From NCBI GenBank assembly GCA_964426185.1, contig CAYRPF010000047.1, positions 14,441 to 24,301 of the forward strand: 9,861 nt of DNA. Reading direction: 5' to 3'. This document shows positions 3,831 to 9,186 of the stretch, piece by piece; position 1 is the first letter of the stretch, and the number at the start of each line of letters is the position of its first letter. The notes under the pieces were generated by a model. It did not search any database. It was not told the origin of the DNA and was given only the letters and a program-made list of their open reading frames with translations. Position numbers and translations under genes: made by a program. Source of the DNA: an uncultured archaeon (GTDB lineage Archaea > Asgardarchaeota > Lokiarchaeia > Sigyniarchaeales > Promethearchaeaceae).

Positions 3831-6800
3831 ATGGCAAAAAAAACCAATACATCAACAAGTAAAAAACATTCTGAACCTTCAAGAAGAAAAAGCAGAGCGA
3901 AATCTGAAGTAAAAAGTATTTCTGGTGCACCTCAAGAAGTAATTCGCCAAGGATCCGTAGCGGAATTTTTCCGAAAAAGAACACAATTAGTCGGTTTCGA
4001 TTTTGGTTTGAATAAACACACCCAATATTGTATAGAATTTTTAGATAACAGCTTAGATGCCATTGAATCCTTCTACTGGAAAGAATCAAAACGACATCCA
4101 GAATACACATTTAAATTGAAGGATGATTTACTACTCCAGAATTTTTCCTATTTAGCTGGTGGAGTAAGTGAAAAAGATCTTCAAGACTTAGAAGAGCGTC
4201 TTAATTCAGAAAGAGTTGATGATGCAGGATATTCACTCACGGAAGATGGAACTTTAGCAATTCTACCAGAAGAACATAAAGAAGATGAAGAATTAATCAT
4301 AGAAGAAGAACTTCCAAAAACAGATGAATCATCTCCAGAAGATGATGAAGAAGCAAAAAAATTAAGAATGTTACAGAAAAAAGATGAAGAACGGGCGCAA
4401 GAAGTCCAAAATATTTTAGAAGGAATCAAGAACTTCATTTTTCCAATTCAAGTCTTAGTAGAACGGGAACCTTTTGTAATTATTCAACTGACTGAGCGAG
4501 AAGCTCAAGACGTTTTTGCAGATGCATCTCAAACGAAAAAAGAAGTATTGGAATATGATTTTGAAATTTTCGATAATGGAACAGGAATGTCTCCGACAGA
4601 TTTAGAAAAATTTGGAAAGTATCTTGCTTCCAGCAAATCACAGAAACTCCGTCAAACACGGGGATCTCAAGGATTTGGATCACCTAGTGCATTTAGCGAT
4701 GCACAAAATACAACAGGAAAACCAGTTACAGTAGTTAGTAAAGATATCAACCATATTTATGGAATTGCATCTCAATTTTACACGACTTCCAAAAACAATA
4801 AAGAATATGTTGTTACACCAACTGAAATTGATTGTCCATTTGAACATGGAACATATATCCGCTTGCAATACATCAATGTAAAGTATCGGAAAGGATATAT
4901 TGATTCATATATTCAAATGACTGCACTGACCAATCCACATATCACAATAATATTTCTTGATCCGTATGGCGGGGAAACTATCTATCCTAGAAGAGTTTCT
5001 CGATTCCCTCGTGAACCAACTTATGCATTACCTCATCCTTCATCTGTTAATATAGGCGATTTTCAAGATCTTCTACGAACTTCAAATAAACTATCTTTAA
5101 GTGTATTTTTGCAAGATAATTTTGTAAGACTTAGTTCCAGCATGGCAAAAGATATTTTGTTTAATGCTGAATTTGAATTAGAGAAACAATTAAACCTTCT
5201 TAATCTAGATCATGGCGTTATCACTTGGGCTCATAATGAATTAGAAAAAATTTATTTTATTAGAAAAGAAAAAAGAATATTTGGCCGAGCAAAAAAACCA
5301 CGTGAGAAGTGGGTTGTTTACAGCATCGAAAAATCAGAAGATTTGAAGCAATATTGGGATATAATTCTCCCTTTTAACAAAATACTTGATGACATCAAAC
5401 GAAAGAATAAAGAAATCAAAAAGCTAAATAAAAAAATCAGCACTCTTTCAGTCAAAAAAGAGATATCAAGCATAAAAAAAGAAATCTCGACTTTAGAAAA
5501 AGGGATTGCTGCAAATTTAAAAGAAATTAATCGGCAAAAGAAGAAACTTTCGCAAATTGTTAAAATTTTTTCCTTAAACGCTGATTCTGAAGTTTCAGAT
5601 GTTAAAATAACAGATAAATTAGAAGAAAATGTAAAAGAATTACTGATTTCTCAAGCAAGACCGAACTCTTTAACACAAAAACAAACAGAAGCGCTGTTTA
5701 AAGCATTTAAAGCGCAAAAATTTATGAAGCCTCCTTCAGATCCCGCAGTTCCGATCGGTGCAAGTGTTTTAGAAACTACTTTAATAAAAGAATACAATCT
5801 AAACCCAGCTTTTAGGACAGATCTTTTTCATGATATAGAATATATTATAGAACCTTTAACACAAAAGGAATCTCAAAACTTTTCTTACAGGATTTTGTAT
5901 AAATTCCTTCAAGAACCATATCTTAATCCAAACTTTTCTACCAAAGATTTATTACTTGATGATCGTGAACACGAATTAGAAGAATACCGAACACTCTTTC
6001 TAAAATTTGATGCACTTTATAATATTGAGGAAGACTTTATTTATGCGCACACTAGACCACCTACCAGTGGTAAAGGTTTAGCATTTGTTGTAGAAGCAGG
6101 TATTGCACTTAGTCCAAAAATTCCACAAGCAAAAACGGCTCAGCAAGTTCTTCTAAGATATGTAAACCGAACTCCAAAAATGCGGGATAATTCCGATTGT
6201 GCCATTTGGAAAGGATGCCAAATGGTGAATTGGAAAAATTATAAATTGGATACCTTTGATAATGGCATACCTAAAGGATCAATTCGAATTTTAGTCAATG
6301 TTTCTGGACCATATGTTCATTTGATGTTCAAATCTCAATCAAAAAATGCACTAGCAGAAGACGAAATTTTACTCAAAGAAATTAAATATTGCTTAGAAAC
6401 AATTGGTCGGAAAATAAGAAATTATCAAAATCGAAAAATTAGACGGGAAAATCGGAGAAAAAGATCTAAAGTTATTGAAAAATACATCCCAATATTTGTT
6501 TCCTCTTTAGTAAATATCATTAAAAATACCGATCTTGAGCAAGTTCCAGACCAAAAAGAACTTGAAAGTCAAATTTATATGCGCTTAGAAGGAAAATTAG
6601 AAGTTCCTGAAGAAAAACCAGAGTCAAGTGAGAAAGTTACAGAAAATTTTGAAAAAATAAAGGAAAAAATAAATAAACAAAAGAAAGCATTAGAAAAAGA
6701 GAAAGAACCAACAATTACTAAAGAAAAAGCGCCAAATTCTGAATTAAAAAGAGAATCAAGCATTTCAGTAAAACCAAGATCAATTTTAAAAAAGGAAAAC

Positions 6801-7328
6801 ACTTCTCAATCAGATGTGAAGCATATTCCATCTCACGCACCAAAATCTGTTGAAAAAGTAGATGATATTATCCAAAAATGGAAAAAAGGTGCAGAACACC
6901 AGAAATCCGCCAAAAAAATCATAAAAGTGAAAGATTCTGATATCATTAAGAAGAAAACAACCAAAAAGAAAACCACTAAAGTCAGAAAATCTACTCAATC
7001 AAAATTAACTCCAAGAAAGGCGTTTACTTCTAAAATCTCTGCCCCAAAAGTTACAACACAAACAAAATCCTCAGAACCACCTAAAAAATTAACAAAACCA
7101 AGTTCTAAAATTCGAATTATTACAACAGATACTATTTTAAAAACTCTAGAAAATCAGAATTGGGTTAATATCAAGGACTTAATTAAACTTCTTGATATAA
7201 AGGATGTCAAAGATGCTCGCTACTTGCAATTAAAACTCAAGCAACTTACTCGGGAAAAGAAAGTGTTACTCACGATTCAAAGCGGTAGAACCTACTGGAA
7301 ACTGAATAAAGCGGAAGTGAATTTATAA
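3831..7328 (+). CDS. top6B: DNA topoisomerase VI subunit B, greatly enlarged (1165 aa)
   Basis: Motifs in order: SVAEFF...GF strap; GHKL N-box EFLDNSLDA (E69, N73); G1 DNGTG (248-252); GKYLASSK; G2 RQTRGSQGFG; G3 HGT; NPH; PHP; H2TH-like FLQDNFVRLSSSMAKDIL; transducer FVVEAGIA, RYVNRTP, WKNY (WxxY), FKSQSK with the switch lysine K838; long basic stalk helix (res ~845-897). It lies directly upstream of top6A. Confidence 0.95.
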   Translation: MAKKTNTSTSKKHSEPSRRKSRAKSEVKSISGAPQEVIRQGSVAEFFRKRTQLVGFDFGLNKHTQYCIEFLDNSLDAIESFYWKESKRHPEYTFKLKDDLLLQNFSYLAGGVSEKDLQDLEERLNSERVDDAGYSLTEDGTLAILPEEHKEDEELIIEEELPKTDESSPEDDEEAKKLRMLQKKDEERAQEVQNILEGIKNFIFPIQVLVEREPFVIIQLTEREAQDVFADASQTKKEVLEYDFEIFDNGTGMSPTDLEKFGKYLASSKSQKLRQTRGSQGFGSPSAFSDAQNTTGKPVTVVSKDINHIYGIASQFYTTSKNNKEYVVTPTEIDCPFEHGTYIRLQYINVKYRKGYIDSYIQMTALTNPHITIIFLDPYGGETIYPRRVSRFPREPTYALPHPSSVNIGDFQDLLRTSNKLSLSVFLQDNFVRLSSSMAKDILFNAEFELEKQLNLLNLDHGVITWAHNELEKIYFIRKEKRIFGRAKKPREKWVVYSIEKSEDLKQYWDIILPFNKILDDIKRKNKEIKKLNKKISTLSVKKEISSIKKEISTLEKGIAANLKEINRQKKKLSQIVKIFSLNADSEVSDVKITDKLEENVKELLISQARPNSLTQKQTEALFKAFKAQKFMKPPSDPAVPIGASVLETTLIKEYNLNPAFRTDLFHDIEYIIEPLTQKESQNFSYRILYKFLQEPYLNPNFSTKDLLLDDREHELEEYRTLFLKFDALYNIEEDFIYAHTRPPTSGKGLAFVVEAGIALSPKIPQAKTAQQVLLRYVNRTPKMRDNSDCAIWKGCQMVNWKNYKLDTFDNGIPKGSIRILVNVSGPYVHLMFKSQSKNALAEDEILLKEIKYCLETIGRKIRNYQNRKIRRENRRKRSKVIEKYIPIFVSSLVNIIKNTDLEQVPDQKELESQIYMRLEGKLEVPEEKPESSEKVTENFEKIKEKINKQKKALEKEKEPTITKEKAPNSELKRESSISVKPRSILKKENTSQSDVKHIPSHAPKSVEKVDDIIQKWKKGAEHQKSAKKIIKVKDSDIIKKKTTKKKTTKVRKSTQSKLTPRKAFTSKISAPKVTTQTKSSEPPKKLTKPSSKIRIITTDTILKTLENQNWVNIKDLIKLLDIKDVKDARYLQLKLKQLTREKKVLLTIQSGRTYWKLNKAEVNL

Positions 7329-7330
7329 AC

Positions 7331-8614
7331 ATGGCAAAGAAATCTTCAAAACGTGTAGCAAAAAGAAGGACTAAAAGATCACGTTCTTCTAAGGGAAAAG
7401 CAAGTGTTTCACAAGAAGTAACACCATCCCGACATTTGAAGGAAAATTTAGAAATGAAAGATTTAGTAGCAGTTCGAAATTTATTAGAGAAAAGATTAAA
7501 AGAAGGAGGAACAACCGTTTATGAGATCCCTCGTGATTCTATAAAAATTGATGAACTAACGATGAATGAGGCATTAAAACGAATTAATGATGTTGCGTTG
7601 GATTTAGTAAATCAAATTAAAATTACCGGTTCACCCACATTCAAAATTCCTAATCGATCCTCATCCAATATTATCTATGATGAAAAACAAGATTTATTAT
7701 TATTAGGTCAAAAGACTACAAATAAATCACTATTAACCCTAACATCAGCTCAAGATAGCGCTCGTTTAATGAAAGTATTAGAAATTATCCATGAATTATT
7801 ACGGAAAAAAAAGCATATGACTAAGCGTGAAGTCTATTATGGCGATGTTAATTTATTTCAAGACCAAAAATTTAGTGATGCAAGTATTGAAGATGCATCA
7901 ACTTTGTTAAGAACTACTCGTAATTCCACAGGAATTGTTGCAAAAGCGCGAGGATCAGCAGTTGGAAGATTGCGTTTGAAGGACAGAAATGAAATTATTG
8001 ATTTGGACGCTCAAGGTTCTGGTGCATGGTCTATTACACCTATGATTGATCAAGTTGAAGTTCTCGAATCAGACGCAGAATTTATTTTAGTTTTGGAAAA
8101 AGATGCTGCGATGATGCGTCTCATTGAGGAAAAATGGTGGCGAAAATATCCATGTATAGCTCTAACCGCTGAGGGAGTTGGAAATGTGGCTACACGAATG
8201 TTCTTAAAGAAAATAAACCGTGATCTACGACTGCCTACATTTAGTGTGGTTGATGCTGATCCTTATGGACACTATATATATTCGGTTTATATCCGTGGAT
8301 CTAAACGTTTATCTTATGAAACGCCCTTTCTCGCTACACCCGATATGCATTTACTTGGTGTTCTTTCCCAAGATTTAGATGAATATGGTATTGATTACTC
8401 TTGCAGAATTCCTATGAATAAAATTGATATGAAACGCTTAGATGATATCCTAGCAGAACCTTATGTGCAAGCAAACAAACGTTGGAAAGAAGATTTGGAA
8501 CTTATGAAAAAAACAAAAATGAAAGCAGAAATACAAGCTCTTTCTTCCCATGGAATAGAATATTTAACTGATACATATTTACCAAATAAACTATATTCAG
8601 GAGATTGGATATGA
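7331..8614 (+). CDS. top6A: DNA topoisomerase VI subunit A (Spo11 family)
   Basis: Winged-helix catalytic motif TKREVYY (Y170, 7838-7840), FQDQxxSD, toprim LEKDA (E256), DADPYG (D308/D310) and C-terminal KAEIQAL. It starts 2 nt after the top6B stop, with an SD-like GGAAGTGA at 7313-7320. Confidence 0.97.
   Translation: MAKKSSKRVAKRRTKRSRSSKGKASVSQEVTPSRHLKENLEMKDLVAVRNLLEKRLKEGGTTVYEIPRDSIKIDELTMNEALKRINDVALDLVNQIKITGSPTFKIPNRSSSNIIYDEKQDLLLLGQKTTNKSLLTLTSAQDSARLMKVLEIIHELLRKKKHMTKREVYYGDVNLFQDQKFSDASIEDASTLLRTTRNSTGIVAKARGSAVGRLRLKDRNEIIDLDAQGSGAWSITPMIDQVEVLESDAEFILVLEKDAAMMRLIEEKWWRKYPCIALTAEGVGNVATRMFLKKINRDLRLPTFSVVDADPYGHYIYSVYIRGSKRLSYETPFLATPDMHLLGVLSQDLDEYGIDYSCRIPMNKIDMKRLDDILAEPYVQANKRWKEDLELMKKTKMKAEIQALSSHGIEYLTDTYLPNKLYSGDWI
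8599..8604 (+). promoter_or_regulatory. Shine-Dalgarno AGGAGA for the ATG at 8611
   Basis: AGGAGA lies 6 nt before an ATG that overlaps the top6A stop (ATGA, 8611-8614). Confidence 0.65.
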
Positions 8615-9186
8615 AAATCTTTCGCACGGATGATGGTCGCATTCTCCAACTAGTGGAAAAAGAAAAGATGCAAGATTGGGATGCAGAAATGCCTCTATTA
8701 TTCATTGGAGTGATGAAGGACAAACGACTTCCTTTATATAAGAAAGTATATCCAAAAAAACTCATCTCACAAGTAGAAGCTTATCTTGATGATATATTAG
8801 AGAATGTTGCAATCCCAAAATTAATTAAGGCGCTTTCAAGCCCAAATACTGAAGAAAGAGTAAGAGTGGCTGAAAATCTCTTGGAAATTAGTAAATCAAA
8901 TCCAGATCAACTTAAGATTGCGCTTCCTCACCTGGAAAGGACATCAAATGATAAGAATAAAAAAATTGCAAAATTAATCAAAGATACTATCAAAAATTAT
9001 CAAAAAGCGCAACGACGGAAACAAACAGCCGCCAAAAGAAAGAAGCTAACTGAATTACGCAAGAAAATGGATGGAATTGATCGAAAATTTGCAGATGGTG
9101 AAATTTCTGATGAAGAATACTTACAAGAACAAAAGAACTATCTGAAGTTAAAACGAGAAATTGAAATCGCAGAATCACTCGATTAA
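8611..9186 (+). CDS. Hypothetical protein (191 aa) with two HEAT-like repeats, a basic coiled coil and a SHOCT-like C-terminus
   Basis: AIPKLIKALSSPNTEERVRVAENLLEIS and ALPHLERTSNDKNKKIAKLIKDTI fit the HEAT/PBS-lyase pattern. FADGEISDEEY fits the SHOCT G-x-I-S-x-E-E-[FY] pattern. I moved the start from TTG 8605 to ATG 8611 because of the SD spacing and the ATGA overlap. Confidence 0.8.
   Translation: MKIFRTDDGRILQLVEKEKMQDWDAEMPLLFIGVMKDKRLPLYKKVYPKKLISQVEAYLDDILENVAIPKLIKALSSPNTEERVRVAENLLEISKSNPDQLKIALPHLERTSNDKNKKIAKLIKDTIKNYQKAQRRKQTAAKRKKLTELRKKMDGIDRKFADGEISDEEYLQEQKNYLKLKREIEIAESLD

Follow-up and report, generated by a model that had tools for sequence, protein, structure and literature searches.

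A Topo VI B subunit from Asgard archaea with a tethered winged-helix C-terminal domain of an unannotated family

The accessory C-terminal domains of type IIA topoisomerases decide how these enzymes act, gyrase wrapping DNA and topo IV preferring crossings, and the unusually long topoisomerase VI B subunit (Top6B) encoded by an Asgard archaeon raises the question of what its own C-terminal extension is and what it could do for Topo VI. To our knowledge, the Ig-like domain of M. mazei is the only structurally described example of a Top6B C-terminal domain. This domain (PDB 2q2e; Corbett 2007, as cited in PMC9348778 and PMC11302465) was proposed to localise or specialise Topo VI and is poorly ordered and dynamic in recent cryo-EM (PMC13040014), and Top6B of TACK archaea ends in one or two helices (PMC9348778, PMC11302465); a preliminary description of the DNA studied here, made from its letters, had summarised the known domains in terms that agree with these last two papers. 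It had also placed a winged-helix-like domain behind a long low-complexity linker at the extreme C-terminus of the Asgard protein. The evidence assembled below supports a Topo VI whose C-terminal domain, a tethered winged helix of an unannotated family, is specific to its lineage; we infer for this domain a probable part in binding DNA.

The window, which is the whole 9,861-nucleotide stretch that was analysed, carries top6B (3831..7328, +) with top6A (7331..8614, +) starting 2 nt past its stop. The 427-aa Top6A combines TP6A_N and Toprim domains (PF04406, PF21180). The assignment of the 1165-aa upstream product to Top6B follows from its GHKL ATPase and transducer, its gene adjoining Top6A, and its score of 319 bits against the NCBIfam Top6B equivalog NF003218, which passes the cut-off of 274; the Pfam scan returned HATPase_c_3 (PF13589) and Topo-VIb_trans (PF09239, 1.1e-27). 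The product is ordered as a GHKL ATPase with an acidic insert, an H2TH with a coiled-coil insert, the transducer, the linker and the winged helix, the transducer core (residues 732-878; 6024..6464, +; PF09239) being the last domain of the catalytic body ahead of the tail. A third gene, which we call X, overlaps the top6A stop, two more small ORFs complete the + strand, and the - strand carries a CoaBC gene and a DHH/RecJ-Cdc45-like gene. The closest named orthologue of the Top6B is a 1155-aa 'hypothetical protein [Candidatus Harpocratesius sp.]', 77% identical over the last 74 residues. This nearest named relative places the window in the Promethearchaeaceae, and throughout, the order denotes Promethearchaeales (Loki-type Asgard archaea). 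Across orthologues the GHKL and transducer cores average 67-68% identity (68% for the transducer).

Several further features of the two subunits lie outside the C-terminal tail. Lys/Arg/Ser-rich N-terminal tails occur on both Top6B (3831-3950, +) and Top6A (7331-7430, +); the first 40 residues of Top6B have a net charge of +8, its residues 1-57 fall below pLDDT 50 in the full-length model, and Top6A begins with MAKKSSKRVAKRRTKRSRSSKGK. The acidic insertion within the GHKL domain (4128-4445, +; Top6B residues ~100-205; net charge -19) occurs order-wide but is weakly conserved at 31% identity, and its residues 128-172 are predicted to be disordered. A Lys-rich coiled-coil hairpin (5334-5564, +; Top6B residues ~502-578) is modelled as helices 502-538 and 542-578 at pLDDT 83-90, and forms part of a larger insertion after the H2TH motif (residues ~450-610) that is found in all aligned orthologues at 38% identity and with no gaps.

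Beyond the transducer, residues 906-1097 (6546..7121, +) form a low-complexity, Lys/Ser/Thr/Pro/Glu-rich linker that is predicted to be disordered and has a net charge of +25. Counted over residues 906-1095 (~190 aa), it contains 24% Lys and 19% Ser plus Thr at the same net charge of +25, with the last 55 linker residues rich in Lys, Ser, Thr and Pro. The charge-hydropathy plot places it among disordered sequences, and residues 923-1095 are mostly below pLDDT 50 in the full-length model, the exceptions being two or three isolated helices; composition, charge-hydropathy and pLDDT thus bear out the long low-complexity linker seen earlier. The linkers of 23 orthologues range from 103 to 317 aa in length, with a mean identity of 20% and 29% gaps, and from -6 to +32 in net charge, so that a basic tail is not a universal feature within the order.

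The last ~62 residues (1098-1159; 7122..7307, +) are predicted to fold as a winged helix (wHTH). An AlphaFold2 model of the last 80 residues, built from a 39-row alignment, has a mean pLDDT of 87.6, and DSSP assigns to it helix 1 (1099-1107), strand 1 (1112-1113), helix 2 (1114-1120), helix 3 (1126-1141) and strands 2 (1145-1150) and 3 (1153-1158), which is the winged-helix topology H1-b1-H2-turn-H3-b2-wing-b3. The full-length model repeats these elements at pLDDT 74-84; its overall pLDDT of 58.9 leaves the transducer region too poor to judge docking of the domain. Foldseek against the PDB returned winged-helix proteins only (BVU3908, PKZ Zalpha, MarR, ArsR/SmtB, Sso10a and eS25), with probabilities of about 1.0 yet a best E-value of 3.8e-3, and the best structural matches are all wHTH domains, mostly of DNA binders (MarR, ArsR/SmtB, HxlR, the H1/H5 globular domain and Zalpha). 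The likeness to solved wHTH domains is clearly above background, and we regard the fold call, made on the predicted model, as solid, with none of the wHTH subfamilies standing out. Both the wHTH fold and the helix-strand-helix-helix-hairpin pattern read earlier from the letters are therefore recovered in the model; the span then assigned, 7116-7310, does correspond to residues 1096-1160, and the peptide quoted for it runs from 1102 to 1158, a trivial offset. Across 19 orthologues the winged helix retains a mean identity of 49% compared with 20% for the linker, which indicates that the pattern is not due to chance, that the domain is under clear purifying selection and that the tether is kept as a tether.

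The preliminary description had likened the domain to PapI/FaeA, Zalpha and the RNase R N-terminal HTH, resemblances that do not hold at the profile level, as none of the corresponding Pfam models (PF04703, z-alpha and PF08461) gave a match. Searches of the domain and 39 family members against Pfam and NCBIfam gave only sub-threshold noise (Bro-N at 0.012, Cas_Csy4, Sul7s at 0.052), and the family is therefore unannotated, without any covering Pfam or NCBIfam model. A profile search of PDB sequences gave weak matches only, among them eS25, itself a winged helix, at E 0.7-1.4, which are unusable as evidence, and a feature search of the ESM Atlas led to unnamed clusters (0.90) and one BlaI/MecI cluster (0.89), which we treat only as a lead.

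Comparison with characterised domains sets the Top6B module apart in several ways. Like the M. mazei domain, it is a globular accessory domain past the Top6B transducer in a gyrase-encoding archaeon; the M. mazei domain, however, is an Ig-like beta-sandwich adjoining the transducer, whereas here an alpha/beta winged helix stands beyond a disordered linker of 103-317 residues. We saw no sequence relationship between the two, and the prediction of three helices and a hairpin, with no beta-sandwich element after residue 900, does not place the Asgard domain in the M. mazei type. MarR, ArsR/SmtB and HxlR proteins are transcription factors that form dimers and have additional helices for doing so, in contrast to the single 62-residue, enzyme-attached module on Top6B, which lacks both those helices and the MarR, ArsR and HxlR Pfam matches. 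Linker histones H1/H5 pair a globular winged helix with a Lys-rich tail, but in Top6B the order is reversed, with the tail ahead of the domain; moreover, the domain has no match to Pfam Linker_histone (PF00538), the basicity of the tail is not conserved order-wide, and H1/H5 is a free chromatin protein whereas the Top6B module is part of an enzyme.

To examine how widely the domain is shared, we followed it through Top6B homologues, as the preliminary description had proposed, and found it order-wide, at the 49% identity given above for 19 orthologues. The winged helix closes all 23 complete Top6B ORFs recovered from the four families sampled within the order, usually with the motif ...G-K-x-x-W-K-L-K. 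A profile of the domain matches 58/59 sampled genomes of the order and 2/191 other Asgard genomes, and both of these outside matches are weak and do not lie in Top6B-sized frames. The nearest Top6B outside the order (694 aa, from the gyrase-less genome G045) has an acidic tail without a winged helix, and viral contigs scanned with the domain profile yielded no relatives. When the last 80 residues were compared by phmmer with 1.84 billion representative proteins, no more than 71 matches came back. Those examined were in many cases Top6B proteins or fragments with a transducer and otherwise had other architectures; three of five matches that were looked up carry an organism name, and all three are Asgard. 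Homology with a eukaryotic Top6B C-terminal domain was considered and, on the strength of this sequence search, set aside; no plant-sized Top6B was seen among the matches.

According to a published idea (PMC9348778), Topo VI acquires a C-terminal domain in organisms that have gyrase, and the GyrA gene in the genome of the window fits it. GyrA is encoded in 55/59 sampled genomes of the order. It is, however, also found in the Asgard families f8 (26/26), f17 (10/10) and f25 (15/16), in none of which the domain profile has a match; the domain is thus compatible with the published pattern, yet gyrase presence does not explain it. Villain et al. 2022 report models of Top6B from gyrase-encoding Asgard archaea with 'a globular domain' at the C-terminus (PMC9348778), and the table of these authors, as published, marks the Asgard C-terminal domain as present (PMC9665070). 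As far as their accessible text goes, the two papers thus describe a globular or structured Asgard Top6B C-terminal region with its fold unnamed, one legend reading 'TopoVIA', which we take as a slip. A fold name, recurrence on other proteins or an order-level distribution was not found in the searchable text of PMC9348778 and PMC9665070, and the supplement text of PMC9348778 holds nothing on the fold of the Asgard domain.

Two observations concern gyrase-encoding Asgard archaea more generally. The best Top6B-like matches in two other gyrase-encoding families (G043:C26:7973-9397 and G054:C27:5039-6412; loci L033, L032 and L037) share 24-29% identity with the GHKL and transducer domains and lie inside open frames of 4191 and 2258 codons, which may represent giant fusions or else another family with GHKL and transducer domains. 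Some Asgard GyrA frames span 1266-1738 codons (e.g. G199:C10, G174:C15 and G064:C1), and their Pfam match is interrupted at profile positions ~41 and ~92, which is what one or two inteins would produce.

The residues that the order preserves in the domain cluster in two elements. Helix 3, the putative recognition helix (residues 1126-1141; 7206..7253, +), has the motif D-A-R-[YFL]-L-Q-x-K-L-K-x-L-x-R, with R1130 kept in 22/23 Top6B copies, Q1133 in 19/23, K1135 in 21/23, K1137 in 22/23 and R1141 in 14/23. The beta-hairpin wing (residues 1145-1158; 7263..7304, +) carries a conserved G-K/R-x-x-W-K, where K/R1153 is present in 23/23 copies and W1156 and K1157 in 20/23 each. Helical periodicity suggests that A1129, L1132, L1136 and L1139 form the buried face of helix 3 and that R1130, K1137 and R1141 are exposed opposite this hydrophobic face. 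A conserved aliphatic residue, L/I/V1134, would lie in the middle of the exposed face and could equally mark a protein interface. The net charge of the domain itself is +3 to +11, which is unremarkable for Lys-rich proteomes.

The same domain recurs on proteins unrelated to Topo VI. It forms the C-terminus of a 1620-aa SF1 helicase (L040:6168-11027, -; G004 contig 9) that contains DUF4011, AAA_11/AAA_12, a REase_MTES_1575 nuclease and DUF3320, and of a smaller protein (167 aa; L043:4646-5146, +; G208 contig 37) that contains two C4 zinc ribbons of the Top1 type, the gene for which, encoding Zn_ribbon_Top1, is divergent from an adjoining RmuC-family gene. N-terminal copies occur on TPR proteins, an AlbA_2 protein and a double-zinc-ribbon protein, and LRR proteins carry the domain internally or at an end. 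P0022, a 755-aa protein of Candidatus Sigynarchaeota without any Pfam match, has three tandem copies in its C-terminal half, so that outside Top6B the family extends past the order. The helix-3 motif, here as D-A-R-[YF]-L-Q-x-K-L-K-x-L-E-R, and the wing G-K-x-x-W-K are equally conserved in the carriers other than Top6B, which argues for a ligand that is independent of the Top6 body.

Gene X (8611..9186, +), downstream of top6A, encodes a 191-aa protein with HEAT-like repeats, a basic helix and a SHOCT-like end, in which the N-terminal ~60 aa are conserved and the HEAT and SHOCT matches are weak. It directly follows top6A in 37/41 relatives and is present in 57/59 sampled genomes of the order, with weak partial matches only elsewhere. 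Protein X is a candidate third subunit of Topo VI. Its phyletic range equals that of the Top6B winged helix, although both are restricted to one clade and their co-distribution counts as a single event. Co-folding of the winged helix with protein X scored 0.16 and 0.00 against a mark of 0.32, which speaks neither for nor against contact between them.

Taken with the DNA enzymes among the fusion partners and the basic tether, the basic pattern of helix 3 and the wing favours non-specific DNA binding, and we consider the chances about evenly balanced that the winged helix serves as a non-sequence-specific dsDNA anchor for Topo VI. The DNA contacts would be made by helix 3 and the wing, and the affinity would gain an electrostatic contribution from the basic linker in this lineage. 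Because each Top6B bears one winged helix, an A2B2 enzyme would carry two. The linker would tie each autonomous domain to the end of the transducer, beside the Top6A DNA gate, and Topo VI would be kept concentrated on the chromosome and gain a second contact with DNA, a mobile one. This could assist in holding a nearby duplex or crossing, like the C-terminal DNA-binding domains of type IIA enzymes, and might affect strand passage. The type IIA parallel is a working analogy: the proposed likeness is that of an accessory C-terminal DNA-contacting element that would tune substrate choice in a type II enzyme, whereas the folds are unrelated (a beta-pinwheel in GyrA/ParC, a disordered C-terminal region in the eukaryotic topo II) and the subunit that bears the element is not the same.

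Protein binding is the main rival to DNA binding. In this case the domain would be a protein-protein adaptor that docks Topo VI and the other carriers onto a shared partner, thereby localising or regulating them, where the partner might be a chromatin protein, an SMC or replisome component, or protein X. The conserved aliphatic residue at 1134, on the putatively exposed face of helix 3, and the TPR and LRR fusion partners, which are protein-binding scaffolds, make an adaptor plausible; we rate it as distinctly less probable than DNA binding, since the exposed positions that are conserved carry mainly basic or polar residues, like those of DNA-binding helices, and a DNA ligand would account more simply for the several DNA enzymes or DNA-binding zinc ribbons among the fusion partners. 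The same recurrence on other proteins weighs against the idea of an autoregulatory plug, in which the domain would fold onto the Top6B ATPase and transducer or onto Top6A and gate ATPase activity or cleavage. The MCM C-terminal winged helix, which tunes ATPase activity, is a precedent, and the tether here sits beside the Top6A-Top6B interface. However, the domain occurs with the same conserved surface on helicase-nuclease, zinc-ribbon, TPR, LRR and AlbA_2 proteins that have no Top6 body, and a tether of 103-317 residues without sequence conservation suits a fixed docking site poorly; intra-enzyme regulation thus seems very unlikely.

We attach similarly little weight to a structure-specific reader, whether Zalpha-like or recognising bent, cruciform or crossing DNA, that would direct Topo VI to regions under torsional stress. 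Structural resemblance to Zalpha does not single it out, as MarR and ArsR domains match just as well. At the profile level no similarity was seen: neither the window copy nor any of 39 members matched Pfam z-alpha (PF02295) in hmmscan, even with E-values up to 10 allowed, and hhalign of the domain profile against ADAR1 Zalpha, using a reference sequence identical to the PDB entries, returned a probability of 0.2%. A register with ADAR1 was set by hand and is inferred; it pairs ILKTLE with ILKFLE, KDLIKLL with HDLSGKL, L1136 with L176, L1139 with L179 and W1156-K1157 with W195-K196, and reproduces the 22% identity of the structural aligner. In this register Q stands at N173 and W at W195, whereas K1137 (Lys in 22/23 copies) stands at Y177 and K/R-T/K at P192-P193, so that the tyrosine and the Pro-Pro that define Zalpha (ADAR1, PKZ) would be missing. 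The Zbeta domain of ADAR1 has no such tyrosine and is not known to bind Z-DNA, and a nearly invariant lysine at the Z-specificity position makes selectivity for the Z-form unlikely. The Z-form targeting entertained in the preliminary description is thus disfavoured by the profile searches and by this register alike.

A broader version of the preferred reading, non-specific DNA anchoring, is that this unnamed Promethearchaeales winged-helix family is a portable chromatin- or DNA-anchoring tag which, on Topo VI and together with the Lys/Ser/Thr/Pro-rich tail, makes a linker-histone-like module. We offer this as speculation that is probably wrong in part or whole; if true, a decatenase would be tethered to histone-bound chromosomes, the helicase-nuclease, the Top1-type zinc-finger protein and the TPR and LRR scaffolds would be recruited to the same sites, and the arrangement would be an archaeal forerunner, by analogy and not homology, of the regulated tails at the C-terminus of type II topoisomerases in eukaryotes. 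Sequence searches did not find the domain in eukaryotic Top6B, and it therefore says little directly about eukaryogenesis. Since one compact, unannotated family is common to several DNA enzymes, discovery of its ligand would annotate all of them. For Topo VI itself, a whole Asgard order, with gyrase in nearly all sampled genomes, carries a solution different from that of M. mazei, namely a winged helix on a long disordered tether. This provides a second, independent case in which to ask whether Top6B C-terminal domains specialise Topo VI where gyrase is present, possibly towards decatenation or towards association with chromatin.
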